Source: an uncultured Actinomycetota bacterium (lineage in GTDB: Bacteria > Actinomycetota > Actinomycetes > Mycobacteriales > Mycobacteriaceae). From it: DNA of 32,000 nt. The translations under genes and the position numbers were made by a program. Below the pieces are notes generated by a model. That model did not search any database, was not told the DNA's origin, and worked only from the letters and a program-made list of their open reading frames with translations. Within the stretch, counting starts at the first letter, position 1, and the number at the start of each line of letters is the position of its first letter. Location of the stretch: the NCBI GenBank assembly GCA_963728815.1, contig CAVSLH010000013.1, positions 70,080 to 102,079 of the forward strand, given 5' to 3'. Shown here in pieces: positions 3,290 to 21,754 of this stretch.

Positions 3290-4700
3290 CCGGATGAGTC
3301 CTCGGAGACGTCGAGCGTGTCGTATCGACGCGTGTCAAGTCTGATATGCGCGGGTTGGTTACCGCAGGACGGGACTTTCGAGTCGGAGTGGGGCCGCTTG
3401 TCTAAAGGACGAGCGTCATCAGTTGTCTAGCAACGTGATTGCTCATAGGTCGCACGCGGGTCACTCCCAGACGCTTGCCGTCACCACCGAAGGTGATCTC
3501 ATCCGGACAGTTGTGAGATGTTAGTCGTCGAGAACGGCCAACGACCAGCACCAGCCGGCGAGTTCGCGGGCGATCGCCGCGTTGGCCACTACGGGGCGTT
3601 TCTTGCGTTCATCGAAACCGGACCAGCGGGCGTGCAGACGTCGGTTGGCTGCCTGGCCGCGGGCACGGGCTGCCGGGGACGCCGTCTCCCATCGTCGCCG
3701 CAGATCGCGCCCCGGCCGATACCGAGGTCGGTGATGCCAGGCCGCTTCGACCAGCAGGCGGCGGGCGTGGCTGTTGCCGGTCTTGGTGACCCCGCCTTGG
3801 GAGCGTGTTGAGCCCGAGGAGTACTCGCTAGGCACCAACCCGAGGTAAGCGCCGATCGAGCGCCCGCTCAGGCGTTGCCAGTCTCCGATTTCGACGGCCA
3901 ACCCGAACGCGGTCAACGTGGAGACCCCGCGCAGACACCCCAGCCGGGTCACCACCGGGGTGAACACCGAATCGGCGGCCATCTCAACGATCGCTTTATC
4001 GAGGCGATCACGGCGGTCCACGGCGGACACCATGGCATCGAACGCCGCGTCGTAGGCCAGCTGTCGGCCTGGCGTGGCGAAGGTGTGCGACCGCAGCCAC
4101 AGTTCGTGCTTGCCGGTCCACGCCTTCCCGCCGGAGTAAACGATCCCTTGTCGTAGAAGCAGTTTCGAGACACGATGCCGAGCTGACATCAGGTCACCAC
4201 GCACGTCGTCGCGAGCCCGCACTAAGTCTCGGGCCGCCTCCTGCTCGATGCCCGGAATCGTCACCTCCACGATCTCACCCAAGTGCAGCAACCGGGCCAG
4301 GTGCCGGGCATCGCGAGTATCGGTCTTGACCCGATCCCCCGACGGGCGCTGCAACTTCGAGGGCGCCGCCACCAAACACACGATCCCGGCGGCAAGCAGG
4401 AACCGCGCCAACCCGAACCCCGTCGGGCCGGCCTCATAGGTGACCGCCACCGGCGGCCCCGACAGACCACGAACCCATTCCAGGATCTCTTGGTGATTCG
4501 GGGTCAACCGGCGCTCGAACACCTCGCCGGTCTCACCATCCAGGCCACACCCAACCACCGATCGTGCATGCACATCCAACCCAACACTCGTACGATAATT
4601 CTTCACTGGGGCCTCCCACATCTTGTGGCTCTACCGGCCAGGACCACCCTGTCGGCAACCCACGTTCACATGTGAGCGAGGCCCCAGCCCCCCATACCGT
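3290..4700 (-). mobile_element. IS110-family insertion sequence (ends approximate)
   Basis: Single transposase ORF 3521..4621. It is flanked by about 230 nt of lower-GC non-coding DNA on its 3' side and at most 91 nt on its 5' side before the next gene start (4713). IS110 elements lack classical terminal inverted repeats, and there is no second copy in the window to define the ends. Confidence 0.5.
3521..4621 (-). CDS. IS110-family (DEDD) transposase
   Basis: 366 aa. The N-terminus has VGLDVHARSVVGCGLD and KTDTRDARHLARL (DEDD_Tnp_IS110-type). The C-terminus has GLVPSEYSSGSTRSQGGVTKTGNSHARRLLVEAAW (Transposase_20-type motif). Confidence 0.95.
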   Translation of the reverse strand: MWEAPVKNYRTSVGLDVHARSVVGCGLDGETGEVFERRLTPNHQEILEWVRGLSGPPVAVTYEAGPTGFGLARFLLAAGIVCLVAAPSKLQRPSGDRVKTDTRDARHLARLLHLGEIVEVTIPGIEQEAARDLVRARDDVRGDLMSARHRVSKLLLRQGIVYSGGKAWTGKHELWLRSHTFATPGRQLAYDAAFDAMVSAVDRRDRLDKAIVEMAADSVFTPVVTRLGCLRGVSTLTAFGLAVEIGDWQRLSGRSIGAYLGLVPSEYSSGSTRSQGGVTKTGNSHARRLLVEAAWHHRPRYRPGRDLRRRWETASPAARARGQAANRRLHARWSGFDERKKRPVVANAAIARELAGWCWSLAVLDD

Positions 4701-5282: not shown

Positions 5283-6000
5283 TACGCCTGCGCGATTGAT
5301 AGCGCCTGAGATGACTGGTAGGCCAGCGCATCCGCTGCGGTGTGAAAACCCAAGTAGCGCAACAACTGTGACTCGTCGCCGACGATCGCCGCCGGATCGT
5401 CGAATTCAACCCGTCGGCACACAACCAGGTCGGCGGATCTGCGGGAAGTCCGAACCAAGCTTCATCCGACACCCGAACCGGCCGTTCGTCTGCGGAGAGC
5501 AAATCTGCCAATAGGAATCCGGTCCGTGCGGCCGGCTTCTTGTTCCCGGCAGCGACCTTCGACCCTGAACGCCTTATTGCCGCGGCCTTAACGGGTTGGC
5601 GCGCTGCAACGTTTCGTGAGGACCGATCCATAAAGTCCTCGCATTGGCGACGATTCGGCGCAGTGTGATGCGCGGCGGCACCGATACCACCATGGCCCGG
5701 TCGGGCCAGGAGAGTCTCATCACCGCCGATGGGACATCGATGCGTTGTCGCTGCAAGGCGGGCAAAAACACACCACCAACCCCGCCGTGACTCGTGGGGC
5801 GGGCGAGGCAACGGTGTCGTGAGTTAAATTAGCGCCTGGCGCTGGGCGCCCGTGCCGGGCTTCGAGGCCCGAGTTTCCGTGGGTGGCTACGGCCCACCAA
5901 CGATGTCGCCAGTTGCTCTGTTACCGAAGCACCATGCGGCTGACCGCAATCCAATCCTTGGCGCGCGTCACGCTGGTGCGTGTCGTAGCGGTGCGAGAGG

Positions 6001-7074
6001 ATGCGGGGCATGACCAGTTTGGTGGATCGGCTGGAGCGGGAGTTGTACGCGGCAGCCACCGCGCGCCCGAGGGATTCGGCCAGGTATGCGGCAGTGCTGG
6101 AGCGAGCGGTGCAGACGTGCAGCGCGGATCCGGAGGCCGCTGAGGTGCTTGACCTGGCCGACCTGTATTTCGAGTTGGCGATGGAGTACGAGACCCTGGG
6201 ACGGTGTGAGGACGCGCTGGCCGCGGCGGACGCGGCCGTCGACGCCGGGCTGCAATCGAACCCGGACCCGCGGTGTCTGCGAGCGGAGATCCTGATGCGC
6301 GCGGGCCGGGTCGCTGAGGCGGAACCGATCTGGGCGGTGGTGCTCGCAGACACGCCCGACGATGTGTGGCTGTACAACAACGCCGGGCTCGAATACGCCC
6401 ACGCCGGTGACCATGAGGCGGCGCTGCGCTGGTTGACCGATGGCCTGCGACTGGCGTTGCGCACCGCAGATCCCGAGCGGCTGGTGGATCAGCTCACCGA
6501 TCTGCGCCAGGAGAGCCTGGACAGCCTGGGCCGGCCCGCCGACGCGCTGCAGGAGCAGGCGGCCGGGTTCCTGCGCGAGAAGCAGCTAGCCCGGCCGGCG
6601 CGGTCCCCATGGGTGGAGGAGCCTGCGCCGGAACCCACCAATGGTGCGGCACCCGGTCCGGTCAACACGGTGGCGTTGGCGTGGCTGCCGGCCGGCGACT
6701 ACGAGCAGGCGGTGAAGTTGTGGCCGGAGCTGGCCGCCAGTGAGCTGGTAGCCGGCCCGGCCGGGCCGCTGCCGCACCGTCTGTACTGCCGCGCGATGCA
6801 GCAACGGCTCGTCGAGCTCTCCCAGGCGGGCCTACGCGGGTTGGCGATCGCGCCGGTGCGGGTAGCGCCGTTCACCGCGTGGTGCGCCGAACAAGGACAG
6901 CAACCTGATTCGGAGGCCCGGGCCACCTATGCCGCGCACCTGGCAGCGAACGCCGAGCCGGGTGTGGTCTCCTGGCCGCCGGGCCGCAACCAGCCGTGCT
7001 GGTGCGGGTCGGGGCGCAAGTACAAGAAGTGTTGCGCCGCACCGTCGCTCGTCGACGCGGAACCACAGCGGTGA
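6001..7074 (+). CDS. TPR-like protein with C-terminal SEC-C metal-binding motif
   Basis: 357 aa. The helical-repeat N-terminus includes LGRCEDALAAADAAVDAG and LEYAHAGDHEAALRWLTDGL. The C-terminus carries GRNQPCWCGSGRKYKKCC (nt 6997-7035), the SecA-type SEC-C motif. Confidence 0.85.
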   Translation: MRGMTSLVDRLERELYAAATARPRDSARYAAVLERAVQTCSADPEAAEVLDLADLYFELAMEYETLGRCEDALAAADAAVDAGLQSNPDPRCLRAEILMRAGRVAEAEPIWAVVLADTPDDVWLYNNAGLEYAHAGDHEAALRWLTDGLRLALRTADPERLVDQLTDLRQESLDSLGRPADALQEQAAGFLREKQLARPARSPWVEEPAPEPTNGAAPGPVNTVALAWLPAGDYEQAVKLWPELAASELVAGPAGPLPHRLYCRAMQQRLVELSQAGLRGLAIAPVRVAPFTAWCAEQGQQPDSEARATYAAHLAANAEPGVVSWPPGRNQPCWCGSGRKYKKCCAAPSLVDAEPQR

Positions 7075-8183
7075 AGACCACCCGCCTGCGGGTGGTGCTG
7101 TGCGATGTCGAGCCAGCGGTCGCCCGGGTGATCGACGTGCCCGCGTCGGCGACGCTACCGGAGCTGCACGAGTTGCTGCAGGCCGCGATCGGGTGGACCG
7201 ACTCGCATCTGCACCAGTTCGTCACGTCGGACGCGACCTACGGGATGGAGATTCCCGGCGAGGAGGTGTGGCCGGCGGATCAGCGTGACGAGACTGGCGC
7301 ACGGCTGGCCGACCTCGGCGCCAGGTTCGAGTACCTCTACGACTTCGGCGACGGCTGGACCCACGACGTCGAGGTATTCGGACCCGGCGGCCCAGCGCCG
7401 GGCTGCGTGGACGGGTACGGCGCCTGCCCGCCCGAGGACTGCGGCGGGCCCGGCGGTTACGCCGAACTGCTCGACGTACTCGCCGACCCGGCGCACCCCG
7501 AGCACGAGCACATGCACGGCTGGGTCGGCAACCGGTTGCGTCCGTTCGACCGGGCCGCCACTGACCAGCGGGTGCGCCGGGTAGTCGGTGAGGTGCCCGA
7601 AAGTGTGCGGCTACTGCTCGATCTCGCCGCCGACGGGGCCCGGCTCACTCCGGGCGGGCGGCTGCCAAGAACGGTGGTGTGCAGCATGCAACAGCACCGC
7701 CCACACTGGCACCTGCTTGGTCGGCCCGCCGCCACCGAGGATGACCTGCCGCCCCTGGGAGCGCTGCACCAGCTACTGCGCCGCGTGGGGCTGCTGCGGT
7801 TGCGCCACGGCGTGCTCACCCCCACCCGCGCAGCCGGCGACGATCTCGCCGTGGTGCGCCGGCTCAGGTCGGCGTTCGGCCCCAAGACCTTTGCCACCGA
7901 GATCACCGAACTGACAATCGGCGTACTCGCCGCGCACGGCCCCATCAACCGCGTACAGCTCGCGAGGCGGGTCCATCAGCTGCTCGGGCAGGCCTGGCGG
8001 CGCGACGGGCAACCCGTCACCGAACGTGACGTGCAGATCGCGATCGCCCAGCAGTCCCCGATCATGCGGGGACTCGACCTGATCGACGACACCGACTGGC
8101 ACGCATGGACGGTCGGCGCCTCGGCTCGATCCCTGCTCCCCCGCGCCGGCATGCCCGCTGAGATCTGGACCAACGACGAGTGA
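7071..8183 (+). CDS. pRiA4b ORF-3-like (PRiA4_ORF3 / IS1096 TnpR-like) protein
   Basis: GTG 7071 overlaps the upstream TGA (GTGA). The N-terminal domain reads RLRVVLCDVEPAVARVIDVPASATLPELHELLQAAIGWTDSHLHQF...FEYLYDFGDGWTHDVEV...CPPEDCGGPGGY, which is the hallmark of this family. Confidence 0.85.
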   Translation: MKTTRLRVVLCDVEPAVARVIDVPASATLPELHELLQAAIGWTDSHLHQFVTSDATYGMEIPGEEVWPADQRDETGARLADLGARFEYLYDFGDGWTHDVEVFGPGGPAPGCVDGYGACPPEDCGGPGGYAELLDVLADPAHPEHEHMHGWVGNRLRPFDRAATDQRVRRVVGEVPESVRLLLDLAADGARLTPGGRLPRTVVCSMQQHRPHWHLLGRPAATEDDLPPLGALHQLLRRVGLLRLRHGVLTPTRAAGDDLAVVRRLRSAFGPKTFATEITELTIGVLAAHGPINRVQLARRVHQLLGQAWRRDGQPVTERDVQIAIAQQSPIMRGLDLIDDTDWHAWTVGASARSLLPRAGMPAEIWTNDE

Positions 8184-8648
8184 GTGGGTACCACGCTCGT
8201 TATGCGCATTGGTCATCAGCGCCGTGTCCGACAGTGGCGCCGCCGGCCGAGGCAACCGGGCGACACCGAGCCGGTTCGCCGCCATGACCCCGTCGACGCG
8301 GTCCCTATCCACGACTTGAGCCTTCCTGCCTTCATTTGCCGCCGTGTGCCGATAGTCGCTCAGGATCGTTGAAACCCGAGAAACCGTCAGGTAGCCAGAC
8401 TGGCAGCCAGGCAAACATGGCACGGATGTCGGTGCGGCGGTGCATACTGCGTCGTGTCGAAGTAGACGCGGGTGACTACGGCCAATTCGCGGGTCGGGCG
8501 CATGTTGGGCAGGTACAGAGAACCGATAAGGACAGAACCCTCGCCCTGAAGATCCTTGCTGAGCGGTACTCGCAAGACGAACGGTTCCGGACGCGGTTTC
8601 GGCGAGGCACGTACCGTGACCGAACGATTGAAAGTGGGTCGATGACGC

Positions 8649-10646
8649 ATGTCCGTCCAAGTCGTCAACCAGGATTCCGTGCTCCAACACGCCCTCGACA
8701 TTGTCAGCGAGACGACGCACCGGTTGTGGATCACATCGCCATGGATCACCCAGCGGCCGGCCAGTCTGCTTCTCCGTGACGCTCTGCCCCGTGTGGCGCG
8801 CGGGCAGCTCGACACACGGATCGTGTATCGGGTGAAGGAACCGGCCGACCTGGACATTACGGACCTCGACGCGCTCAAGGCGCTAGAGGACGCGGGTTGC
8901 CTGGTGCGCTACTCCACCCGGCTGCACGCCAAGCTCATTCTGGCCGACAGCGCCGCGCTCGTATCCTCATCGAACCTCACCGCGACCGCCGGCTATGGCC
9001 TGGACGAGGCGGCCGCCTGGCGCAACGAGGAACTCGGTGTCGTCATTCGCAGCGACGATGCGGTTCTTTCCGAGCTTGAGTCACAGTTCGAAGCCATCTG
9101 GTCCTCGGCGACGCGGGTCGACGAAAGCACGATCGGTATCGCGATGGATTTCCCGACGGTTCGTCAGTTCAGCTTTGTCGCCATCCGCGACGTCCGCCTG
9201 GGCGAATATGCGACAGCCCACGACACCGCGGGCAACGTGGTTCTCGGGCGGATCTCTGAAGTAACCGCCTACAACCCGTCGTTTCCTCAAATGAACGAGT
9301 CGATGTGGATCACTCAGGGCTACTCGGGCACAGGGGGTAGCAGCCGCGTGGAAGTGCCGGATCTGCAGTCGTTGTTCTCGCACCCGTCCAAAGAGCACGG
9401 ATTCCTGGTTACGAAGACGTTTTTCGAGCCTGAGTCGGTATTCCGTATCGCACGAGTCGAAGTGCTCAAGCACTATGTAGCTGGCCGCCTGCTCTCCCCC
9501 ACCGTGCCGGTGGCCCCGGGATCCGACGTCTCGCACGCATCTCCTGAACTGCTGCGCCAGCTCCTGGGCGATGGGGACGTCGAGCTCGGCACCATGCTGC
9601 ACCACCCTGACGTACCCGTCGCCTTGCGGTCAGCCGAGTTCTCGAAGCACCTGGCGGTTTTGGGAATGACGGGTTCGGGCAAGTCCAACGCCATCAAGGT
9701 TCTTCTGCATCGCCTCAGCAATGGTCCGCTGTGCGAGGCACTCAGGGTGGTTGTCATCGACACGCACGGCGAATATGCGCCTGTGGCGCAGATGATCTCG
9801 CCGTCTGCTCGGATCGTCGACGTCCGACTACGCCGCAGCGTCCTCGACGACGACGTGGTCCGCGATCTGCTGAGGTTGTCCCGTCGCAACGAGGCACTCC
9901 TGGACAAGCTGGCAGCGGTCGCCGACGGACTGTCACCGGAGCAGGATCTTGAGGAGTTCCTCGCCGCCGTCGAGCTGGAAGCTCCCGATGCCGGCCCCCT
10001 GGCCGAAAAGCTCACCCGGCTGGTGGCCGCCGCGCGAGAGGCGGACGACCTGTGCCTCTGGCCCCACGACAGCGCTGTGATCACCCGCGCCGATAGCGTT
10101 GGCCCTCAACGGCTTGACGAAGCCGGCCTCTACATCCTGAACCTCCGCCACACAACCAGCCTGGAGGAACGATCGGCTAAGGCCGCAGCTGTCATGACCG
10201 ACGTCTTTGAGCACAGCAAGCACACCGGCGGCCAATTTCCGTCGCTCGTCGTGCTCGACGAAGCACAGTACTACGCGCCCGAGCAACAAACAGGGTGGCT
10301 CGCGCGCGCTCGGCCGTCCTTCGACGCCGTGTTTGCGATCGCGTCTGAAGGACGCAAATTCGGTGTGGGGCTTGTGGTGTCGAGCCAGCGCCCGGCGCGC
10401 GTGAACAAAGACGTCCTCAGTCAATGCAACACCCATTTAGTCTTTCGCGTGGCCAACGTTGAGGACCTCTCGGCCCTCGCCGGCAGCTTCGAGGCAGCGA
10501 GTCAGCCGCTGCTGGATGAGCTGCCTGGATTTGACACCGGAGTGTGCGTTGTCGGCGGCACCGCGATCGGCATGCTGACCCGCGTCGAGGTGCCGTTGTT
10601 CGAAAGCGTTGCCGTGGAGAATGATTCGTCGCCGCCGTCGCCGTGA
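8649..10646 (+). CDS. Fusion protein: N-terminal PLD/HKD-family nuclease + HerA/FtsK-type (DUF87) ATPase
   Basis: 665 aa. The HKD motif is LHAKLILADSAALVSSSNLT (His codon 8925, Lys codon 8931, Asp codon 8946). Walker A is LGMTGSGKSNAIK (Lys codon 9681). Walker B is LVVLDEAQYYAP (Asp codon 10257). The HerA-type tail reads GRKFGVGLVVSSQRPARVNKDVLSQCNTHLVFRVAN. The segment between the two domains sits where HerA proteins carry the HAS barrel. Confidence 0.9.
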   Translation: MSVQVVNQDSVLQHALDIVSETTHRLWITSPWITQRPASLLLRDALPRVARGQLDTRIVYRVKEPADLDITDLDALKALEDAGCLVRYSTRLHAKLILADSAALVSSSNLTATAGYGLDEAAAWRNEELGVVIRSDDAVLSELESQFEAIWSSATRVDESTIGIAMDFPTVRQFSFVAIRDVRLGEYATAHDTAGNVVLGRISEVTAYNPSFPQMNESMWITQGYSGTGGSSRVEVPDLQSLFSHPSKEHGFLVTKTFFEPESVFRIARVEVLKHYVAGRLLSPTVPVAPGSDVSHASPELLRQLLGDGDVELGTMLHHPDVPVALRSAEFSKHLAVLGMTGSGKSNAIKVLLHRLSNGPLCEALRVVVIDTHGEYAPVAQMISPSARIVDVRLRRSVLDDDVVRDLLRLSRRNEALLDKLAAVADGLSPEQDLEEFLAAVELEAPDAGPLAEKLTRLVAAAREADDLCLWPHDSAVITRADSVGPQRLDEAGLYILNLRHTTSLEERSAKAAAVMTDVFEHSKHTGGQFPSLVVLDEAQYYAPEQQTGWLARARPSFDAVFAIASEGRKFGVGLVVSSQRPARVNKDVLSQCNTHLVFRVANVEDLSALAGSFEAASQPLLDELPGFDTGVCVVGGTAIGMLTRVEVPLFESVAVENDSSPPSP

Positions 10647-10679
10647 GGACGTTCAGCCCCCTTGCCGTGCAGGACAGCC

Positions 10680-11622
10680 GGCTTATCTCGACGCTGAAGG
10701 CATTCGCCCCTGACGGTGAGCCGATGTAACCTGAGTCTGCTTCATGAGATGCCGTCGCCAAGCTCCGACTGGACGGCACGCCAACCCCACGCTCGTGGGT
10801 GGCTCGGATGACGAAGCGGCCTGGCACCAACCGGTGCGGGCAAGAGCGCCTCCCCATGCGGAGGCCCCACCTTTCGGGAGTATTGCAATGCCTCGGAATC
10901 GTTCCTGCGGGTCGTATGGCCCCGGCCACCTCATGCACTGGATCCAGGGCAAGAAATCGCACGAGGACGGGCAGCCGATCATCAAAGTGAAGGTCGTTGC
11001 CTTTCATGACGACGGACGCGTCGAAATCGAAGGTGACGACCTGAAACTGACGCGGTGGTATCACGACCCTGACCACCTTCGTTCGGCGCTCTGCTTCGGT
11101 GGCCGCGGCGCATGGAAGCCGAAGTATCACGTGTTGTATGTGATCTCGAGCGGCTCGTTCAACTTCGCCACGATGGACGAGGTGGAGCCCTGCGAACCGC
11201 CGATACGCCGGCGATCTACCGAGACCACCAGGCAGTTCATCGAACGGGCGATGCGAAAGAACCACGGCTACACGGTTCCGGCGCCCTGGTTGGCTGACCT
11301 GGATGCCATACCGGACGGCGACATCGGTGAACCGGAGTCCGGGTACCTGGTTGGGATCGAAACTCCCACGGATACAACACTGTTGGAGACATTGCCGCCC
11401 AAACCACGGACGCCAGGACACGGCTGACGTGCCCGAGACAACCAGTCATGGTGTGCAGTACCACGTGCTGCCCGATGACGCCTTAGCCGCGCTGAACATC
11501 CTGCGCGAGGCCGCCGGGCTGGAGCCGCTGTCCTCTCCCGACCACAGTGAACCAGAGGACGCCGACGGCGGCACCCGATCCAAGGGGAAGACCAGCAATG
11601 ACTGAGCGATGGCGTCCGAAGG
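10680..11622 (+). repeat. Direct repeat copy A (943 nt), carrying partner gene X1 and its leader
   Basis: Aligns by eye to 20855-21659. The stretch 10746-10890 is identical to 20922-21066. The CDS differs at about 14 of 534 nt. Copy A has 139 extra nt (11418-11556) relative to copy B. Confidence 0.9.
10888..11427 (+). CDS. Uncharacterised protein X1 downstream of PLD-HerA (paralog of 21064..21642)
   Basis: ATG 10888 is preceded by GGGAG 7 nt upstream. Third-position GC is high and the amino-acid composition looks natural (MPRNRSCGSYGPGHLMHWIQGKKSHEDGQPIIKVKVVAFHDDGRVEIEGDDLKLTRWYHDP...). The long antisense ORF 10417..11421 is Arg/Pro-rich shadow. I recognise no domain. Confidence 0.6.
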   Translation: MPRNRSCGSYGPGHLMHWIQGKKSHEDGQPIIKVKVVAFHDDGRVEIEGDDLKLTRWYHDPDHLRSALCFGGRGAWKPKYHVLYVISSGSFNFATMDEVEPCEPPIRRRSTETTRQFIERAMRKNHGYTVPAPWLADLDAIPDGDIGEPESGYLVGIETPTDTTLLETLPPKPRTPGHG

Positions 11623-11800
11623 AGTTGGGCCACGGCTCGATTGACTAGCAGCATCCGTTTTGGCACCTGGTTGCGACTCCCTGGCCGGGCTGGAGTCTCG
11701 AATCTGAAGAACCGCCGTCGATCAGATCCTGTCTCACCTGATCCGCACCTAAACGCGCATCCCTGGACCCAGAGGACGCAATTGGTCATACTTGTGACTA

Positions 11801-12085
11801 ATGACTGAAGTCAGCTCACTCGCCGAGGCGAAGGCGCACCTGTCGGAGTTGGTGGCCCGTGTCGCCGATCAGCACGAGCGGATCACGGTAACGGTGCGCG
11901 GACGCCCCGCGGCGGTCCTTCTTGCCATCGACGATCTGGAGTCACTCGAGGAAACCATTGCAGTGCTGTCCGACGCGACGGCGCTCCGTGCCCTTGGCGA
12001 GGCCGATGCTGAGCTAGCACGCGGCGAAGGGGAGAACCAGGACGGTCTTGCCGCAGCCATGGAAGCACGCCGAGCTAGGACGTGA
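11801..12085 (+). CDS. relB: Phd/YefM-family antitoxin (RelB-like)
   Basis: 94 aa. The sequence SLAEAKAHLSELVARVADQHERITVTVRGRPAAVLLAIDDLESLEETIAVL is a classic Phd/YefM N-terminal fold and resembles mycobacterial RelB/RelF. It overlaps the downstream toxin start by 4 nt. Confidence 0.9.
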   Translation: MTEVSSLAEAKAHLSELVARVADQHERITVTVRGRPAAVLLAIDDLESLEETIAVLSDATALRALGEADAELARGEGENQDGLAAAMEARRART

Positions 12086-12360
12086 CGGACCGGCGATATG
12101 AGCTGATAATCGCTCCGACTGCGAGAAAACAACTGGCTGAAGAACTTCCCGAATCGGTGGCGTTCGCTGCCTATGAGTTCATCATCGGTCCACTACTCGA
12201 CAATCCTCACCGCGTGGGCAAGCAGCTCCGCCCCCCGTTGCACGACCGCTATAGCGCACGCCGCGGCACCTACCGCGTGCTCTACAGGATCGACGACGAG
12301 CGTCAGCGAGTCACCGTCGTCGGCGTGTTCAGCCGCGCGGACGCATACCGTGCCAAATGA
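12082..12360 (+). CDS. relE: RelE/ParE-family toxin
   Basis: 92 aa. The sequence ...AAYEFIIGPLLDNPHRVGKQLRPPLHDRYSARRGTYRVLYRIDDERQRVTVVGVFSRADAYR is the RelE pattern (PLLxNPHRxGKxL...ARRGxYRVxYxID...V). GTG 12082 overlaps the relB TGA. Confidence 0.9.
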   Translation: MTDRRYELIIAPTARKQLAEELPESVAFAAYEFIIGPLLDNPHRVGKQLRPPLHDRYSARRGTYRVLYRIDDERQRVTVVGVFSRADAYRAK

Positions 12361-12566: not shown

Positions 12567-12974
12567 TCAGACCCGAATGATCGTCAGGTTGGCCGCGCCA
12601 TCGAGAGCGGCGAAGTCGTCGTCCTGGGTGATGACGGGCAGTGCTCGCGATGCCGCGATGGCCGCGATCCACAGATCGTTGATCCGGACCCGCCGACCGG
12701 TCTCGGCGAGATAAATCCGCAGGCGCGCCCACATGCGGGCCGCTTCCTCGTCGACTGGCAGCGTTTCTACGTCCGCAACAGATTCCAGTGTTGCGAGGCG
12801 TTGCGCCCTGATGTCGGAAGTCGTCGCGGCCAGCACGCCGACGTGGAGTTCGGCGAGGGTGACGACGGTGGTGGCGACCTCGTCGGGGATCAGCGCCTCG
12901 TCGAGTTGCCGACCGCTTTCGGTCGCGATGAACACCGAGGTGTCGAGTACTCCGGCCGCCCGCGTCGTGCTCAT
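12567..12974 (-). CDS. vapC: VapC PIN-domain toxin (close to M. tuberculosis VapC5 as I recall it)
   Basis: 135 aa. It has GVLDTSVFIATE (first acidic PIN residue) and RINDLWIAAIAASRALPVITQDDDFAAL (C-terminal PIN acidic residues). There is an ATGA overlap with the upstream antitoxin. Confidence 0.9.
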   Translation of the reverse strand: MSTTRAAGVLDTSVFIATESGRQLDEALIPDEVATTVVTLAELHVGVLAATTSDIRAQRLATLESVADVETLPVDEEAARMWARLRIYLAETGRRVRINDLWIAAIAASRALPVITQDDDFAALDGAANLTIIRV

Positions 12975-13231
12975 CAGATCGGCCCGAGATCCTCGGTTGT
13001 GTCGCCCGCGAGCGCCGCGAGGTCCTCGCGTAACCCGGGATCGGCTTGAGCGCGGCGCAATCGCGAGAGGAACTCTGTTTTGCTCAGCCAGCGCCGGCGC
13101 TGCGGGCGAACCGCCGTGAGAACCGCGACAGGTCGGCCGTTGACAGTGATGGTGACGTCCTCCCCTTCCCGCACGCGCCGAAGCACTCCCGCGGTATCGT
13201 TGCGCAGCTCACGAGACGCCACTTCAGACAT
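12974..13231 (-). CDS. vapB: VapB antitoxin (Phd/YefM-type fold)
   Basis: 85 aa from ATG 13231: MSEVASRELRNDTAGVLRRVREGEDVTITVNGRPVAVLTAV... The longer ORF up to 13474 has an implausible Arg/Cys-rich N-terminus. Confidence 0.9.
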   Translation of the reverse strand: MSEVASRELRNDTAGVLRRVREGEDVTITVNGRPVAVLTAVRPQRRRWLSKTEFLSRLRRAQADPGLREDLAALAGDTTEDLGPI

Positions 13232-13794: not shown

Positions 13795-13863
13795 GTTGAC
13801 AAAGTTGACGATGGCAGGTTGACGTGCTTGACAATAGGTAGTTGACTGTCTTGACGAGGCCTT
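13795..13863 (+). promoter_or_regulatory. Three tandem 23-bp units, each with two (G)TTGAC half-sites: candidate operator/promoter of the Xre-RES operon
   Basis: The units are GTTGACAAAGTTGACGATGGCAG (13795-13817), GTTGACGTGCTTGACAATAGGTA (13818-13840) and GTTGACTGTCTTGACGAGGCCTT (13841-13863). TTGAC starts at 13796, 13805, 13819, 13828, 13842 and 13851. The array ends 9 nt before the GGGAGAGGAAAG RBS and 26 nt before ATG 13890. Confidence 0.6.
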
Positions 13864-13889
13864 GCAACCGATGGGAGAGGAAAGCGACG

Positions 13890-14417
13890 ATGACGGACCT
13901 TGCCTCATTCGAGCGCCAGATCATGCGATTGGTCGGCCTGAGGGTCCATGACCGACTCCGGAGGGCCAGCGAAGCGCAGCTCGGTCCGGAAGCATTCGGC
14001 GACCCGGAGCAGATTGCCGACGCCATGGTGGCGGCACTTCCCTTGGGGCACGTCTTCGACGAGATATCGGGGCCGTTCTACGACACATCGGGCCTTAGCC
14101 GATGGCTGGGGATCTCACGTCAGGCCCTGCACCAGAAGGTGGCACGGCATGCGATTCTGGCGTGTCCCCTCGATGATGGCAGCGTCGTCTACCCGACGTG
14201 GCAATTCCTCGACAGCGGCGCGACCATCCCGTCGTTGGCCGAGGTGCTCGCCACGCTGGCGGAGGGTACCGACGACGCGTGGATGATCGCGCTGTGGATG
14301 CGGGCGCCAAGCGAAAACCTCGACGGCGAACGTCCCAGTGAATGGCTGCGCAAGGGCCGTGACCCGCAACGCGTGATTGCGATGGCACGACAGGTGGCGT
14401 CGAGCTGGGCCGCATGA
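13890..14417 (+). CDS. Xre/MbcA/ParS-type antitoxin (HTH + DUF2384 toxin-binding domain)
   Basis: ATG 13890 follows a strong RBS. The HTH-like segment is LSRWLGISRQALHQKVARH. The C-terminus WMRAPSENLDGERPSEWLRKGRDPQRVIAMARQV fits the DUF2384 pattern (W...pn..L.G..P.e.l......v). There is an ATGA overlap with the RES gene. Confidence 0.8.
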   Translation: MTDLASFERQIMRLVGLRVHDRLRRASEAQLGPEAFGDPEQIADAMVAALPLGHVFDEISGPFYDTSGLSRWLGISRQALHQKVARHAILACPLDDGSVVYPTWQFLDSGATIPSLAEVLATLAEGTDDAWMIALWMRAPSENLDGERPSEWLRKGRDPQRVIAMARQVASSWAA

Positions 14418-15046
14418 GCGATTCCCGACAGCGCCCAGCACTCGGTCTGCCGCCGCCCGACGTATCACGTTTCCCTCGATCGCGACTTCTGCCCAGCGTG
14501 CCGTTGCACCGGGCGCACACTGCCGGCAAGCCGCCGTGGTGGTTCTCCTCCGATTTGTCGGGTCGTTTCGACCTGATCCAGCCCAACGGGACTTGTTATC
14601 TCGCAACGGATGTCGCCATCGCACTGCGGGAGCGGTTCGGTCATGACCTGGTTCGCCAGGGCGTGGTCACATTCCAGGCGGCGGCTCGAACACACGTGTC
14701 GAGACTGCAGGTTCCGTCGGAGCGCTGGCTCGCGAACACCTGCTCGCCGGCAGCGGCAAACTTCGGCATGACCCGTGAAATCGGGACGTGCCCGTCGTAC
14801 GACATTCCGCAGGCGTGGGCGGCGGCCTTCTTCGGCGGCGGCAAGCATTCGGGCATCCGCTACCAAACCCGGTTCAGCACCGGAGCGACGCCCAACGCGG
14901 CGGCTCTGTTTGACGCCTCGGGGAAACACGAGTGGCCTACTGACCCGCACCCGGTTCATGGTGTCCAAGCGTGCACCGGGGTCGGCATCACGGTTGCGCA
15001 CCGGCCGACCAGCCGACAGGTACGCACGGTGCAGCCGCCGGGATGA
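14414..15046 (+). CDS. RES-domain toxin (MbcT/ParT-like NAD-targeting family)
   Basis: 210 aa. The sequences SGRFDLIQPNGTCYLATDVAIALRERFGH (Arg and Glu regions) and GIRYQTRFSTGATPNAAALFD (Ser region) carry the R-E-S signature. Confidence 0.85.
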   Translation: MSDSRQRPALGLPPPDVSRFPRSRLLPSVPLHRAHTAGKPPWWFSSDLSGRFDLIQPNGTCYLATDVAIALRERFGHDLVRQGVVTFQAAARTHVSRLQVPSERWLANTCSPAAANFGMTREIGTCPSYDIPQAWAAAFFGGGKHSGIRYQTRFSTGATPNAAALFDASGKHEWPTDPHPVHGVQACTGVGITVAHRPTSRQVRTVQPPG

Positions 15047-15936: not shown

Positions 15937-16356
15937 TTAAGTTTTCAAAGTCGGGGTAAGCGCCGCGCGCAGAATGTCCGCATCGCTTGTTGCTAGGGTG
16001 AGGTTTCGCCGAGCGGCCTGGGCGATGAGCACCCGGTCGAAAGGGTCTTTGTGTTCCCAAGGCAGGCGGCCGGCCAGGATGGCATCGCCCGCGTCGATCG
16101 CCAAGTCGGTAGCGGTCATGTCGGCAATGATGTCCGACCACGCTGACAACAGCGGCTCTCCATCCAGGCGACCCAGCCGGGTCTTGATTGCGATCTCCCA
16201 TGCCGACGCTGCCGAAACCATGATCTCGGTACTCGGATCGCGGAGCTGCTGACGCGCCGAGTCGGAAACCTTCTCCGGCGCACTGACCAGCCACAGCAGG
16301 GCATTTGTGTCCAGGAGAACAGCCAGCGGCGTCGACGTGGGCCGCTGGGCAGTCAT
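15937..16356 (-). CDS. vapC: VapC-type PIN-domain toxin
   Basis: 139 aa from ATG 16356. It has VLLDTNALLWL, SAASAWEIAIKTRLGRL and HKDPFDRVLIAQAARRNLTLATSD, the PIN family with a DPFDR(L/V)LIAQA motif. There is an ATGA overlap with the antitoxin. Confidence 0.85.
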   Translation of the reverse strand: MTAQRPTSTPLAVLLDTNALLWLVSAPEKVSDSARQQLRDPSTEIMVSAASAWEIAIKTRLGRLDGEPLLSAWSDIIADMTATDLAIDAGDAILAGRLPWEHKDPFDRVLIAQAARRNLTLATSDADILRAALTPTLKT

Positions 16357-16586
16357 GAGTTGCCTTCCCACGCAGCGATTTCGGCTTCGGGAAGCGGTTC
16401 GTCGAAGTTGTCGGGCACGATGAGCGCCGGCAGCTGACCGAATTTCCGCGGCCGGGGATGCGCTGGCGCGAGCACAGCCACGGCACGTCCATGGTTGGTG
16501 ATGGTCACCGACACCCCGGTCCGCTCGACCTCTGCCAGGAGCGCATTGAGCTTTGCCTTGGCCTCGGTGCTCGTGACCGTCTTCAT
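16353..16586 (-). CDS. vapB: Phd/YefM-type antitoxin
   Basis: 77 aa: MKTVTSTEAKAKLNALLAEVERTGVSVTITNHGRAVAVLAP... Confidence 0.85.
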   Translation of the reverse strand: MKTVTSTEAKAKLNALLAEVERTGVSVTITNHGRAVAVLAPAHPRPRKFGQLPALIVPDNFDEPLPEAEIAAWEGNS

Positions 16587-16643: not shown

Positions 16644-16812
16644 GTATAGGCAGGTGCATACAGAGAGTACAGCGCCGACATTAGGCACACGCAGGCGGAA
16701 CTTTCGTCACGGCAGACTCCCAAACCTCATCTCCACCACTTTCGCGTGTCGCGCGGCATGGTTGGGCAGTCTTGTCGGACCGGGTCGTTACGGTGCGGGC
16801 GTGCAATCGCTG

Positions 16813-19800
16813 ATGTATCCATCGATCGACCTTGCGAGCGCGCTCGGGCTGCTTGGCGCCGACACCTATCGTCGTGGCCTGGCCTATGCGCGGGAAGGAC
16901 GGGTGCTGCGTTGCCTGTGGGACCCGGACGCTCACAACCTTGTCGGCAATGTTCGCGGTAGCCAAGGCCGCACCTACGCCACAACGGTGCAGCTTTTGCC
17001 GGTAGACATCGATAGCTGGAGTGTCGAAAGCGGGTTCTGCAGCTGCCCGGTGCACGTGAACTGCAAGCATGTCGTGGCAATCGTCATCGCCGCCGCGGGG
17101 GCCACAAAGATGCGTGCCCAACATACGCCGCCTCCGCCAGCTCCAACGCCATGGCGGCAGTCGCTGGAGGCGCTGCTTCCCCCGGCCTCGACGAACGATC
17201 GCATCGGGACACCACTGGCGATCGAGCTGAACCTGTCGGTGAGCGGGCCGTCGCCGACTCTCGACGCGCGCCTCGTGCGGCCCGGAAAGCGCGGCGGCTG
17301 GGTGGCCGGCGATCTGAGCTGGGGCAAGCTGCACATGCTGCGCCACTGCGGTTATCCCGACGCTCAGCTTCGGCTGCTGCAGGAGCTCTATGCGACCCAC
17401 CGGGCGTCGAGCTCGAATTCGACTGGCTACTACAGCTATTCGTACCGGGGTTATACCTACGGCGACGTGAAGACGATCTCGCTGCTGGGATTTGAATCCC
17501 CGCAGCTGTGGCCGCTGCTGGACGAAGCGCGCCGAGTCGGGGTGCAGCTGGTGCAGGCGCGGCCACAACAGGATGTGCCGACGTACGCCACGGCGCAGTT
17601 GTGCCTGGACATCACGATCGACGAGACGGGCGATCTCACCGTCGAGCCCGTGCTTCGGGTCGACGGCGCCGCAGCACGGCCCGTGGCGTTCATTGGATCG
17701 TCAGGTCATGGCGTGGTGTATGTCGACGGCGGGTTGCGGCTCGCCCGACTGGACAAGCCGGCGCCTGAGGCGTTGCAGCGCATGACACTCAGTGATGAGC
17801 CGCTGGTCATACCCGCGGACGAGGCGCCGCGGTTCGCCGCGGAGTACTACCCCAGGTTGCGCCACATCGCGGCCGTCACGTCGTCGGACGAGTCGTTCAC
17901 GCCGCCAGCGATCGTCGGGCCGACGCTGGTCCTGCGGGCCGACTACCAGGCCGAGCACCAGCTCGAGTTGACATGGGAATGGGCATACCGCTTAGGCGAC
18001 AACGACTTTCGCGCACCGGTCGGCACATCGGAGTATGTCGCTTGCCGCGACCTGGAAGCGGAGAAGACACTCGCCTCGAGCATCGAAGCGCCGCTGGAGC
18101 AATTCGGGCTCCGCGCCGCCGACGGCACGCTCATCACCGAGGCGCGACTTTCCGGCCTGGAGACAATGCGATTCGCCACCGAAATTCAACCGCTGCTCGC
18201 CGAACTTCCCGATGTCGCGCTGGAGGTGATCGGCGACCCAGTGGACTACCGGGAGGCGGGTGGCTCCCTCGTCATCGCGGTGACGACGGACGCGGTGGCC
18301 GGCGAGACAGACTGGTTCGACCTGGGTGTCACGATCAGCATTGAAGGCAACCAGGTTCCGTTTGTCAGCGTGTTCACCGCGCTCGCGTCCGGGCAGTCGC
18401 ACCTGCTGCTTGCCGACGGCGCCTACTTCGCGCTGGACAAGCCGGAGCTGGTGAAGCTGCGCCAGCTCATCGAAGAGGCCCGCGCACTCACCGATGCTGA
18501 AGAGGGGCCACCCCGGATCAGCCGATTCCAGGTCGGGTTGTTCGACGAACTGGCCGAGGTCGGAGTCGTGACGCGGCAGGCCGACGAGTGGCGGCGCCAA
18601 GTCGACGGGCTGCGCGCGCTGCAGGGTCTGGAACCGGCGGCGGTGCCAACCAGCCTGCGTGCTCAGCTAAGGCCGTATCAGGCCGACGGGTTCTCGTGGC
18701 TGGCGACCCTGCACACCCACGGGCTCGGTGGGATCCTCGCCGACGACATGGGCCTGGGCAAGACCGTCCAGTCGCTGACGTTGATCTGCCATGTCCGTCA
18801 ACAGGATCCGGGCATGGCACCATTCCTGGTGGTTGCGCCGGCCAGTGTGGTGGCGAACTGGGCCAGCGAGGCCGCACGGTTCGCGCCTGAGCTGTCGGTC
18901 GTGCCGATCTCGGACACGCTGCGCCGCGCCGGCGCCGACCTCGACGAGCTGGCAGCGGGTGCCCACATCGTGGTCACCTCGTACACGCTGTTTCGGCTGG
19001 ACTTCGACGCCCACGCCGCCCGAACGTGGTCCGGGCTGATCCTGGACGAAGCCCAATACGTGAAGAATCATCACGCCAAGACCTACCAGTGCGCACGCAG
19101 GTTGGCCGCACCGTTCAAGCTGGCGATCACTGGCACACCGATGGAGAACAATCTCATGGAGCTGTGGTCGCTGCTGTCGATCGCCGCCCCCGGGTTGTTC
19201 CCCAACCCGACGAAGTTCGCCGACTTCTTCGCCAAGCCCATCGAGAAGACCGGCGACCCCGAGCTTTTGGCCCTGTTCCGCCGCCGCATCAAGCCGTTGG
19301 TCAAGCGCCGCACCAAGGAGCACGTGGCCGCCGAGCTGCCAGCCAAGCAAGAGCAGGTCCTCGATATCGAGCTGCCGCCGCGGCACCGCGCCCTCTACAA
19401 CAAGCGACTGCAACGAGAGCGGCAGAAGGTGCTCGGCCTGCTCGATGACATGCAGCGTAACCGGTTCACGATCCTCAAGTCTTTGACCGTGCTGCGACAG
19501 ATGGCGCTGCATCCCGGGCTCGTCGACCCCGCACACGACACGCTGGCGAGCGCGAAGATCGACGTGCTCGCCGAGTATCTCCTCGACGTCGTCGACGGTG
19601 CCCACCGCGCGCTCGTGTTCAGTCAGTTCACCCGTTTCCTCGGCCGGGTCCGCGATCGCCTCGACACCGAAGGAATCGACTACTGCTATCTCGATGGGCG
19701 AACCCGTAACCGTGCAACAGTGGTACAGCGGTTCAAGGAAGGAGATGCACCGGTTTTCCTGATCAGCCTCAAGGCCGGTGGGTTCGGGCTGAACCTCACC

Positions 19801-20052
19801 GAGGCCGACTACTGCTTTCTGCTCGACCCGTGGTGGAATCCGGCCACCGAGGCCCAGGCCATCGACCGCACACACCGCATCGGCCAGACCCGCAACGTAA
19901 TGGCGTACCGGCTCATTGCCCACGACACCATCGAGGACAAGGTAATGGCCCTCAACGCCCGCAAAGCCAAGCTGTTTGCCAGTGTTATCGACGACGGTAA
20001 CGCGTTCGGCTCCGCCCTCACCGCCGACGACATCCGCGGACTGCTCGCCTAA
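16813..20052 (+). CDS. SNF2-family helicase with N-terminal SWIM zinc finger (HelZ-like architecture)
   Basis: The SWIM motif is CSCPVHVNCKHVVAIV (about 17038-17085). SNF2 motifs are LADDMGLGKTVQS, LILDEAQYVKN, AITGTPMENNLMELWSL, LVFSQFTRFL, FLISLKAGGFGLNLTEADYCFLLDPWWNPATEAQAIDRTHRIGQ. ATG 16813 is the preferred start; the ORF is open from 16654. Confidence 0.9.
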   Translation: MYPSIDLASALGLLGADTYRRGLAYAREGRVLRCLWDPDAHNLVGNVRGSQGRTYATTVQLLPVDIDSWSVESGFCSCPVHVNCKHVVAIVIAAAGATKMRAQHTPPPPAPTPWRQSLEALLPPASTNDRIGTPLAIELNLSVSGPSPTLDARLVRPGKRGGWVAGDLSWGKLHMLRHCGYPDAQLRLLQELYATHRASSSNSTGYYSYSYRGYTYGDVKTISLLGFESPQLWPLLDEARRVGVQLVQARPQQDVPTYATAQLCLDITIDETGDLTVEPVLRVDGAAARPVAFIGSSGHGVVYVDGGLRLARLDKPAPEALQRMTLSDEPLVIPADEAPRFAAEYYPRLRHIAAVTSSDESFTPPAIVGPTLVLRADYQAEHQLELTWEWAYRLGDNDFRAPVGTSEYVACRDLEAEKTLASSIEAPLEQFGLRAADGTLITEARLSGLETMRFATEIQPLLAELPDVALEVIGDPVDYREAGGSLVIAVTTDAVAGETDWFDLGVTISIEGNQVPFVSVFTALASGQSHLLLADGAYFALDKPELVKLRQLIEEARALTDAEEGPPRISRFQVGLFDELAEVGVVTRQADEWRRQVDGLRALQGLEPAAVPTSLRAQLRPYQADGFSWLATLHTHGLGGILADDMGLGKTVQSLTLICHVRQQDPGMAPFLVVAPASVVANWASEAARFAPELSVVPISDTLRRAGADLDELAAGAHIVVTSYTLFRLDFDAHAARTWSGLILDEAQYVKNHHAKTYQCARRLAAPFKLAITGTPMENNLMELWSLLSIAAPGLFPNPTKFADFFAKPIEKTGDPELLALFRRRIKPLVKRRTKEHVAAELPAKQEQVLDIELPPRHRALYNKRLQRERQKVLGLLDDMQRNRFTILKSLTVLRQMALHPGLVDPAHDTLASAKIDVLAEYLLDVVDGAHRALVFSQFTRFLGRVRDRLDTEGIDYCYLDGRTRNRATVVQRFKEGDAPVFLISLKAGGFGLNLTEADYCFLLDPWWNPATEAQAIDRTHRIGQTRNVMAYRLIAHDTIEDKVMALNARKAKLFASVIDDGNAFGSALTADDIRGLLA

Positions 20053-20073: not shown

Positions 20074-20625
20074 CTATTGCTTGCCCAGCGCATCCAAGTC
20101 GAGGCGCAATGGAACGGGAGTGCTGGTCGTAAACGTGCCGGTGACCGCGGGTGATTCCTGGTAACCGAACTCGCCCGTTAGGCGCAGTGCGGTAAGCGTC
20201 ACGGGCGGGCCAAGCTCCACGATCCAGTAGTGCTCGATCGTGGCCTCGGCGTATTCGGACCGCTTGGTGACGGTATCGGTCCGTCTGGAGCCTGGCGAAA
20301 CCACTTCGATCGCCACCAGCACATCCGGTCCGCCCAACCTTCGTGCCGAGCCCTCTTTACGGGTGATCACGACATCCGGAATGCGGACCGTTGGCGGGTA
20401 AGCGGCATCGACACAGACCTCGAACTCGATAATCGCTTCGAGATCGTCGGGCAGTTGATCATCGAGTTGCTTCGCGATGCGGAACGCGGCCCGCGCGTGC
20501 GGCCGCAACAGCCTCGGCGTCACGATGAGCACGCCCTCCTGCAACTCGATGTGGGCGCCGTTGTCCTCCGGGAGCGCGTCCCAGTCCTCAATGGACAGCA
20601 GCTTCGGCAGGTGAACGCTCGTCAT
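20074..20625 (-). CDS. Uma2-family (DUF820) PD-(D/E)xK endonuclease
   Basis: 183 aa with RIPDVVITRKEG, VAIEVVSPGSRRTD and KRSEYAEATIEHYWIVEL, the canonical Uma2 D...E.xSP...K..Y...G..eYW motifs. A strong RBS (GGAGGAGGCGGAAAGGCG) precedes the ATG. Confidence 0.85.
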   Translation of the reverse strand: MTSVHLPKLLSIEDWDALPEDNGAHIELQEGVLIVTPRLLRPHARAAFRIAKQLDDQLPDDLEAIIEFEVCVDAAYPPTVRIPDVVITRKEGSARRLGGPDVLVAIEVVSPGSRRTDTVTKRSEYAEATIEHYWIVELGPPVTLTALRLTGEFGYQESPAVTGTFTTSTPVPLRLDLDALGKQ

Positions 20626-21659: not shown

Positions 21660-21754
21660 CATTTGGCCTTTCACGTCGCCAACGTTGGGGATCTGTCGGC
21701 GCTCGCAGGGAGCTTCGAGGCGGCGAGTCAACCGCTGCTCGATGAGTTGCCTGA
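21660..21754 (+). pseudogene. 95-nt remnant of a second herA-like gene (equivalent to 10434-10528 of the PLD-HerA gene)
   Basis: It translates as HLAFHVANVGDLSALAGSFEAASQPLLDELPE, versus HLVFRVANVEDLSALAGSFEAASQPLLDELPG in the intact gene. About 14 mismatches in 93 nt by eye. It starts directly at the end of repeat copy B and loses similarity after 21754. Confidence 0.65.

Follow-up and report, generated by a model that had tools for sequence, protein, structure and literature searches.

Can a single polypeptide in which a nuclease is joined to a HerA-type ATPase serve as a defence system of its own, and does the gene that follows it form part of that system? These questions are raised by a 32,000-nucleotide stretch of DNA, hereafter called the window, from an uncultured Actinomycetota bacterium (assembly GCA_963728815.1, contig CAVSLH010000013.1, positions 70,080 to 102,079). 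An open reading frame (ORF) at window positions 8649-10646 combines a phospholipase D (PLD)-family nuclease with a HerA ATPase; we refer to it and its relatives as PLD-HerA, and to the gene downstream of it as X. Here we establish the domain content of this gene, the integrity of its catalytic residues, the HerA fold of its product, the conservation of its family and the genomic company that the family keeps. The ORF probably encodes a self-contained ATP-driven nuclease that restricts invading DNA, acting either autonomously or after recognition of that DNA by a bacteriophage exclusion (BREX) system or by type I-U Cas proteins. A single-polypeptide nuclease-HerA defence gene is the best reading because the fusion is intact and uncharacterised, and because its family is found in defence contexts. 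The original prediction for this locus, a candidate single-polypeptide HerA defence system with X as its partner, therefore holds for the genuine and intact fusion and for the defence contexts of its family, but not for X.

Architecture and conservation of the fusion

The fusion gene and its parts are placed as follows:

8649-10646 (+): intact PLD-HAS-HerA fusion gene, 665 aa, ATG start (Pfam PLDc_2 and DUF87; AlphaFold2; best Foldseek matches are HerA)
8649-9113 (+): PLD-family nuclease domain at the N-terminus, residues ~1-155; each chain has a single HKD motif (Pfam PLDc_2; family profile against the Protein Data Bank, PDB)
8925-8981 (+): HKD catalytic motif HAKLILADSAALVSSSNLT, with H93, K95, D100 and S107-S108-N109 (conservation in 63 sequences)
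9126-9548 (+): HAS-barrel domain, residues ~160-300, between PLD and ATPase (AlphaFold2 beta-strands; Foldseek; Pfam HAS-barrel in the family member P0309)
9576-10598 (+): RecA-like HerA ATPase with a helix-bundle insert, residues ~310-650 (DUF87; PADLOC HerA; PDB HerA chains)
9663-9686 (+): Walker A GMTGSGKS, residues 339-346, K345 (invariant residues in the family alignment)
10248-10268 (+): Walker B VVLDEAQ, residues 534-540, D537 and E538 (conservation in the family alignment)

The reading of the sequence as an HKD/PLD nuclease joined to a complete HerA ATPase in one 665-aa ORF was borne out, and the motifs first quoted for it all lie at the residues given. The HKD stretch, RLHAKLILADSAALVSSSNLT (H93, K95, D100, S107-N109), conforms to the PLD superfamily motif HxK(x)4D(x)6(G/S)SxN as H93-A-K95-x4-D100-x6-S107-S108, and SSQRP and THLVFRV are also present in the protein. 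Pfam PLDc_2 matched residues 20-151 with 32.9 bits against a gathering score of 27, and DUF87 (PF01935, the HerA central domain) matched with 75.3 bits against 23.2 (E 9.8e-21), which places the protein in the HerA/FtsK superfamily. The HerA models of PADLOC matched as well (best E 4.6e-42), and the PLD part gave weak PADLOC matches only, to MkoB, DrmC and DpdK. Among the NCBIfam models, the archaeal repair helicase_HerA ranked first (148.5 bits, E 2.4e-43; equivalog cut-off 970), HerA_antiphage reached 99.7 bits against a cut-off of 800 and HerA_antiphage_2 86.2 against 850; the PLD part stayed under the cut-offs of DrmC (30 bits against 133) and DpdK (26 against 100), and plasmid_TraB scored 22 bits against 800. 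Because all the NCBIfam HerA scores fall far under the equivalog cut-offs (800-970 bits), the fusion protein is a HerA outside every curated HerA family. The G+C content at third codon positions (GC3) of the ORF is 0.77, which is typical for coding sequence in the window, and a promoter and terminator scan of positions 8000-11900 returned nothing over the shuffled background.

The AlphaFold2 model of the fusion protein, computed with the family alignment, has a predicted local distance difference test score (pLDDT) of 93.3 and a predicted template modelling score of 0.87, with beta-strands at residues 161-208 and 265-296 and helices at 401-464. When the model was compared with the PDB using Foldseek, the top matches were the HerA-NurA complex of T. 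kodakarensis (9x1m, E 1.5e-34) and the HerA of S. solfataricus (4d2i), and next after archaeal HerA came the SIR2-HerA (8wld, 8sub, 8j4u) and DUF4297-HerA (8ziq, 8zir, 9c1m; E ~1e-25) complexes. These alignments run to whole HerA chains (520-615 columns) and thus take in the HAS barrel, the RecA core and the helix bundle alike, and the protein is predicted by the model to have the two features of a HerA proper, namely an N-terminal HAS barrel and a helix-bundle insert in the RecA domain. The family profile matched HerA chains in the PDB (9x1l, E 7e-56; 4d2i, E 6e-49) as well as PLD structures (7e0m, E 5e-9; Zucchini 4ggj, E 4e-5; Nuc 1byr, E 4e-3). The PLD structures were reached only with this profile; the single PLD-domain sequence found no match in the PDB. 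The profile searches agree with a PLD fold at the N-terminus, on the evidence of PLDc_2 and of the family profile, and with one HKD motif per fusion chain the profile matches are to single-HKD nucleases of the Zucchini and Nuc types.

A search of 5.8 billion proteins returned more than 100 clusters (90% identity) of fusion proteins of 630-750 aa, which are 38-81% identical at ~98% coverage and nearly all of which have precomputed matches to PLDc_2 and DUF87; the fusion is therefore a conserved family and not a chance juxtaposition. An exhaustive phmmer search of 1.84 billion cluster representatives with the first 300 residues gave 181 matches at E<=1e-3, 65 of them at E<=1e-10. Nine of ten distant members that were scanned, mostly 23-35% identical, keep PLDc_2 and DUF87, and in the distant member P0309 the Pfam HAS-barrel model matched directly between PLD and ATPase. 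The sources are mostly metagenomes and metagenome-assembled genomes (MAGs) of Mycobacterium-like Actinomycetota, Acidimicrobiia, Thermoleophilia/Gaiellales, Acidobacteriota and Chloroflexota, with Gaiella occulta as the one cultured species. In an alignment of 63 sequences, H93, D100, S107 and N109 of the PLD domain are invariant and K95 and S108 are conserved at >=90%; in the ATPase, G339, T341, G342, G344, K345, E538, the EGRKF block and Q580-R581-P582 are invariant and D537 is conserved at >=90%. The architecture is therefore old, conserved and rare, and the family that keeps it has diverged deeply. The cluster of the window protein itself holds identical or near-identical full-length copies on several contigs.

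Two further searches concerned other forms of the gene. The fusion was not found in the plasmid collection, where the matches were to the ATPase part of ordinary HerA-like proteins. A split version, with a stand-alone PLD protein beside a separate HerA, was considered and rejected, as the short matches proved to be pieces of the fusion, from contigs of low coverage or with frameshifts, and these too lay beside BREX. Separately, one homologue (P0024, locus L082, 8001-10055), which is 61% identical to the window protein, has RLHSEVVLAD in place of RLHAKLILAD and keeps its ATPase motifs; its PLD site may be inactive because K95 is changed to E.

Genomic company of the family and the proposed role

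The context survey covered about 20 homologous loci, and the ORFs flanking 17 family loci were compared all against all by BLAST. This comparison revealed no neighbour gene common to the family and no shared downstream gene. In the panel tblastn, the neighbours found were specific to single clades: BREX genes, cas genes and SNF2.

Type-1 BREX adjoins the fusion gene at eight independent loci (L084, L085/86, L002, L003, L094, L095, L174 and L175). At L084, L085/86 and L175, PLD-HerA shares the strand of brxL and starts shortly past the last ORF called from it, at a distance of 4 nt (L084, L085/86) or ~150 nt (L175). PLD-HerA and brxL are convergent at L095, and at L002, L003, L094 and L174 PLD-HerA is located upstream of, or divergent from, the brxA-brxC-pglX end. 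Type I-U cas genes (Cas_GSU0053, Cas_GSU0054 and cas3) adjoin it at six loci: L004, L007, L008, L012, L087 (Gaiella) and L088, the last of which shows a 4-nt overlap between PLD-HerA and cas3. In two Acidimicrobiia MAGs (L005, 2436-5387; L006, 6833-9766), the next gene after PLD-HerA overlaps it by 4 nt and encodes a ~980-aa SNF2-family helicase, apparently a third kind of operonic partner besides brxL and cas3. The recurrent linkage to BREX and to type I-U cas genes is absent from the original prediction. The settings of the family are defence contexts, namely BREX, type I-U CRISPR-Cas, integrative elements and toxin-antitoxin islands.

The type I-U-linked clade (L087, L088, L008, L012 and L004) also differs in length. 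Its members have 720-750 aa, with ~80 additional residues at the C-terminus, which are missing from the window protein and might be an adaptor to Cas proteins.

How might the fusion work? In single-HKD PLD nucleases such as Nuc, BfiI and Zucchini, the active site is made from two chains, and catalysis proceeds through a phosphohistidine intermediate and requires no metal ions. HerA proteins are hexameric translocases of double-stranded DNA (dsDNA), and their HAS-barrel face is the docking site of NurA in the solved HerA-NurA complexes (PMC9960219). By analogy, PLD-HerA would assemble as a hexameric ring, like other HerA proteins, and would use ATP to pull dsDNA through its pore. As the PLD domain is fused directly N-terminal to the HAS barrel, the fusion would place it at the face where NurA docks on HerA. 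In a hexamer, six N-terminal PLD domains would then sit on that face and could combine in pairs to give as many as three composite HKD active sites, which would cut the translocated DNA without a metal ion. Cutting DNA as it is pumped would amount to an ATP-driven nuclease in one chain, and invading phage or plasmid DNA would be degraded. In the relatives this activity may be an add-on to BREX or type I-U CRISPR-Cas; in the window it would be that of a stand-alone copy in a toxin-antitoxin island. Since the relatives adjoin BREX and CRISPR loci, we consider PLD-HerA a candidate gene with a probable anti-phage or anti-plasmid function.

The similarity to archaeal HerA raises the question of whether PLD-HerA is instead a housekeeping repair machine, in which PLD would replace NurA in a HerA-NurA-type resection of double-strand breaks. 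The nearest relatives of the ATPase in sequence and structure are indeed archaeal repair HerAs (helicase_HerA, 9x1m and 4d2i), and a genome scan beyond the family itself found mostly archaeal HerA genes. However, a score of 148 bits is far under the equivalog cut-off of 970, the distribution is patchy and rare, and no mre11, rad50 or nurA lies nearby; in the window, neither NurA nor Mre11 nor Rad50 is among the Pfam families of the called genes. The islands in which the family resides contain insertion sequence (IS) elements, integrases, toxin-antitoxin genes, BREX and cas genes, and pseudogenisation is frequent in sister genomes. Based on this, a repair role seems to us quite unlikely.

Several loci suggest another possibility, namely that the protein serves mobile elements, either by processing or transferring the DNA of integrative or conjugative elements or by excluding competing elements. 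On the contig of P0082, PLD-HerA is part of an element resembling an actinomycete integrative and conjugative element, with RepSA, an integrase and a Xis-type helix-turn-helix protein. At L082 it lies between tyrosine recombinases and is followed by a DUF3293 gene. At L098 its neighbours are a resolvase and an archaeo-eukaryotic primase, at L006 and L013 it is found beside a single-stranded DNA-binding protein, and in the window an IS110 element is located 4 kb upstream. On the other hand, defence genes commonly ride on such elements, so that this explanation overlaps with the restriction of invading DNA; the protein is without the features of the actinomycete TraB-type transfer ATPases (the plasmid_TraB score given above); and for the 14 BREX- or cas-linked loci a location in transfer modules is not obvious. 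We therefore regard service to a mobile element as an unlikely explanation.

Some observations weigh against the interpretation of PLD-HerA as a nuclease that restricts invading DNA. The defence role rests on guilt by association, that is, on genomic context, and the neighbours of one distant member (L127) are housekeeping genes, for ribulose-phosphate epimerase and LptD. For the single window sequence, the PLDc_2 score is only modestly over threshold. Several copies in sister MAGs are truncated or fragmented (L010, L011, L013, L014 and L015), which fits a dispensable gene but shows frequent loss. Finally, no BREX or cas genes are present in the 32-kb window, and the local role could therefore differ from that of the relatives.

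In the neighbour-joining tree, the window copy falls within a clade of otherwise mostly BREX-linked members, and the absence of BREX genes from the window, together with the degraded copies in neighbouring MAGs, could mean that the window gene no longer functions and was left stranded when a BREX locus was lost. However, the ORF is of full length, keeps all the invariant residues of the family and has a GC3 typical of coding sequence here, and full-length copies recur on several contigs. It is thus improbable, in our judgement, that the gene is a leftover, and we continue to read it as a probable ATP-driven nuclease.

The surroundings of the window copy are a dense toxin-antitoxin island, as had been proposed: in addition to the IS110 element, the island contains a PhdYeFM/ParE pair, three PIN/antitoxin pairs and two RES genes. 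The window copy stands alone there, with no type-1 BREX core genes in the same locus. The other features of the window are:

L001 1-2349, left edge: second SNF2 gene and a 634-aa protein
6001-7074 (+): SEC-C/TPR gene; 4-nt overlap with the PRiA4_ORF3 gene according to the source gene calls
11801-12360: PhdYeFM/ParE toxin-antitoxin pair
12567-13231: PIN/Phd pair
13842-15046: uncharacterised gene and RES gene (a second RES gene is also present)
about 15937-16586: PIN/Phd pair
16654-20052 (+): SWIM and SNF2 helicase, 1132 aa (PADLOC DpdE model end to end, E 1e-227)
20074-20625: Uma2 nuclease (match to PADLOC candidate PDC-S03)
21918-22768: PIN/ribbon-helix-helix (RHH) pair

No other dpd genes accompany the DpdE-like SWIM and SNF2 gene in the window, and this gene may encode a mycobacterial HelZ-type helicase. 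The suggestion that the SEC-C/TPR and PRiA4_ORF3 pair belongs to the PLD-HerA system had to be abandoned; the pair is not conserved with the family and has no homologues at the other family loci, save for a 17-aa SEC-C motif. A 50-nt inverted repeat that is 92% complementary (6982-7031 on the plus strand, 25025-25074 on the minus strand) corresponds to the coding sequence of the SEC-C zinc motif, which is common to the SEC-C/TPR gene and an 860-aa ORF at 23848-26430 (-). As the motif falls in the middle of the protein, this ORF may represent two genes.

Gene X and its SAM-IV riboswitch

The region downstream of the fusion gene, and its second copy some 10 kb away, have the following features:

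10740-10852 (+): SAM-IV (S-adenosylmethionine, SAM) riboswitch aptamer, leader of X (Rfam RF00634, 79 bits against a gathering score of 38, model positions 1-116 of 116)
10888-11427 (+): X copy 1, 179 aa (source-contig gene call; Shine-Dalgarno sequence GGGAG 7 nt before the ATG)
11429-11605 (+): small ORF after X, 58 aa (gene call; a similar small ORF follows X at other loci)
20916-21028 (+): SAM-IV riboswitch copy 2 (RF00634, 78.4 bits against a gathering score of 38)
21064-21642 (+): X copy 2, 192 aa (tblastn, 96% identical to X copy 1 over 177 aa)
21660-21752 (+): remnant of a second herA downstream of X copy 2 (residues 596-626, 31 aa; tblastn, 28/31 identical, 90%, E 2e-11)

X had been described as a 180-aa protein (here 179) without a placeable motif, and that description is unchanged by our searches, which gave no match in Pfam, NCBIfam, PADLOC or PHROG, none in the phage collection and a single weak match to Rhodococcus among plasmids. 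With dN/dS values of 0.16-0.55 and a GC3 of 0.74, X is a real gene. The core of its AlphaFold2 model (pLDDT 73) is a small beta-barrel predicted with confidence, whereas the tail is disordered; the best Foldseek match in the PDB, at E 0.12, is a weak resemblance to the OB-like N-domains of proteasomal ATPases. With more than 220 clusters (90% identity), the X family exceeds that of PLD-HerA in size, and the few members that carry a species name all come from mycobacteria: M. fragae, M. kyorinense and Mycolicibacterium thermoresistibile.

The recurrence of X with its leader beside a herA remnant was likewise correctly noticed before. The repeat pairs 10737-11036 with 20913-21212 at 99% identity and is flanked by blocks of 81-86%. 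An indel of 139 nt between the X copies (11419-11560 against 21595-21600) changes the repeat spacing from 10176 to 10037. As a result of it, the small ORF is largely deleted in copy 2 and its 3' end is fused to X, while copy 1 keeps X and a separate 58-aa ORF. The fused form is found at full length in a Mycobacterium sp. MAG (L010, 92.7% identity over 192 aa) and at L092/L093.

Do herA and X form a two-gene defence unit that moves together, in which X would be a sensor, a regulator or an immunity partner? This was the original proposal, and three observations speak for it: in the window X comes after herA, copy 2 of X has a remnant of herA next to it, and at L011 a C-terminal herA fragment (residues 555-665) is located ~90 nt upstream of a SAM-IV element and a 43%-identical X-like gene. 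The leader of X is a SAM-IV riboswitch, however, which means that X has its own regulator, and this holds for both copies. SAM-IV was found at six other X or X-like loci, at four of which it precedes the gene by ~35 nt (L010, 8334-8446; L011, 17023-17136; L089, 5812-5921; L091, 5853-5965). At the remaining two, L092 (SAM-IV 3676-3788, X 5891-6534) and L093, 2.1 kb separate the aptamer from X downstream of it. An acyl-CoA dehydrogenase gene on the opposite strand occupies the space between them, and beside X only the last ~30 nt of the riboswitch region are left, as if the leader had been rearranged or interrupted by an insertion. Furthermore, no herA is present within 6 kb of X on the long contigs of L089-L093, and the settings in which X is found without herA include a type I restriction-modification (R-M) system with DUF4238, transposases and metabolic genes. 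Conversely, X is not a constant companion downstream of PLD-HerA: no X homologue occurs at any of the PLD-HerA loci outside the Mycobacterium-like MAGs, and the neighbour comparison had shown no common downstream gene.

Because X occurs without herA and is preceded by SAM-IV, the recurring unit is SAM-IV and X, with or without the small ORF, and not herA and X. The two-gene unit is thus largely refuted, and we consider it very improbable. X is best regarded as a separate SAM-IV-controlled cassette that does not belong to the PLD-HerA system and happens to follow herA in this lineage. We tentatively read the herA remnant beside X copy 2 and the fragment at L011 as rearrangement scars among duplicated island segments of closely related genomes. 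Orphan C-terminal fragments of PLD-HerA that start around residues 555-596 occur in the window (21660-21752, +) and at L010 (3947-4177), L011 (16587-16931) and L014 (10001-10288); the 3' end survives preferentially and sometimes adjoins the SAM-IV and X cassette. The fuller copies at L010 and L011 have an internal deletion or an N-terminal truncation.

X sits in variable islands and is not a sulfur-metabolism gene, yet it is under SAM-IV control, and its expression may be induced when SAM is depleted. A survey has reported SAM-IV elements in 16 Mycolicibacterium prophages, without an explanation (PMC8190616). As a multi-copy mycobacterial family under SAM-IV in variable islands, X is an unexplained regulon member that merits a study of its own.

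One speculative scheme would link the two genes after all. PLD-HerA might be a portable ATP-driven DNA-shredding module that is plugged into other immune systems, following brxL in type-1 BREX and preceding cas3 in type I-U CRISPR-Cas, and destroys DNA recognised or nicked by the primary system, with the orphan window copy and its SAM-switched neighbour X forming a backup that is triggered by SAM depletion. An OFF switch that binds SAM would raise X when SAM falls, as with phage SAM lyases directed against BREX or R-M systems, and the adjacency of herA and X could then be a backup rather than a coincidence. We give this scheme a small chance; if true, some BREX loci have a dedicated executioner.

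PLD-HerA and known nuclease-ATPase systems

A PLD-HerA or HKD-HerA fusion is not described in the literature searched, including two Aravind/Krishnan surveys (of HerA/FtsK 'capture' systems and of BREX accessories), and no Pfam, NCBIfam or PADLOC model spans it; the view that PLD-HerA is uncharacterised has therefore stood. It belongs to a well-populated class of nuclease-NTPase defence candidates and, if it is a HerA defence system, would be the simplest version of the design in which an effector is mounted on HerA. The fusion would fix the effector stoichiometry at 6:6, and with PLD-HerA the gating of a nuclease by a ring translocase could be studied conveniently in the product of one gene. 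The killing step of BREX is debated and type I-U systems are poorly studied. The placement of PLD-HerA at the ends of BREX clusters and beside type I-U cas3 suggests a DNA-degrading accessory shared by both. In addition, the window copy provides a mycobacterial candidate defence gene for work on mycobacteriophages.

PLD-HerA is not a member of any of the closest known systems, as its neighbours include no SIR2, DUF4297 or NurA gene and its scores are under the cut-offs; neither SIR2 nor DUF4297 occurs in the genes flanking the window copy. DUF4297-HerA (Hailibu) resembles it in combining a nuclease effector with a hexameric HerA ATPase, and the PLD-HerA model matches its solved complexes; however, the Hailibu effector is a separate DUF4297 protein (Cap4-like, PD-(D/E)XK) that sits on HerA, whereas in PLD-HerA a PLD/HKD domain is fused N-terminally. 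In SIR2-HerA (Nezha), to whose structures the model also matches, HerA likewise is the scaffold or motor that carries the effector, but this is a separate SIR2 NADase that brings about abortive infection by NAD+ depletion, whereas the predicted effector of PLD-HerA is a nuclease in the same chain.

HerA-NurA, the DNA end-resection complex of archaea and Deinococcus, is the closest relative by sequence and structure, and in it, as in Hailibu and Nezha, a separate effector protein occupies the HAS face. Its nuclease is placed at the HAS-barrel face of a dsDNA-translocating ring (PMC9960219), as proposed for PLD-HerA. NurA, on the other hand, is a separate RNase-H-like dimer that is encoded beside herA, often with mre11 and rad50, whereas PLD-HerA is fused and resides in defence islands. 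The closest precedent for the fusion itself is provided by the BrxL-HKD variants of type-1 BREX, in which a ring ATPase is fused to an HKD endonuclease in a BREX context; BrxL, however, is an MCM-family AAA+ protein with a C-terminal HKD domain and an HRD variant motif (PMC12839542). PLD-HerA differs from it in having a HerA/FtsK-type ATPase of the additional strand catalytic E (ASCE) division, an N-terminal HKD domain and a canonical H-x-K. Finally, SauUSI-type enzymes, the HKD-superfamily 2 (SF2) protein PbeA, DrmC of DISARM, DpdK of Dpd and MkoB of Mokosh share with PLD-HerA the use of an HKD nuclease and an NTP-driven DNA motor for restriction, but they are monomeric or dimeric SF2 helicases or stand-alone PLD proteins in a multi-gene system, whereas the motor of PLD-HerA would be a HerA ring. 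On the basis of its domain composition, PLD-HerA is thus a previously undescribed architecture within the nuclease-HerA theme, with defence as its candidate function.

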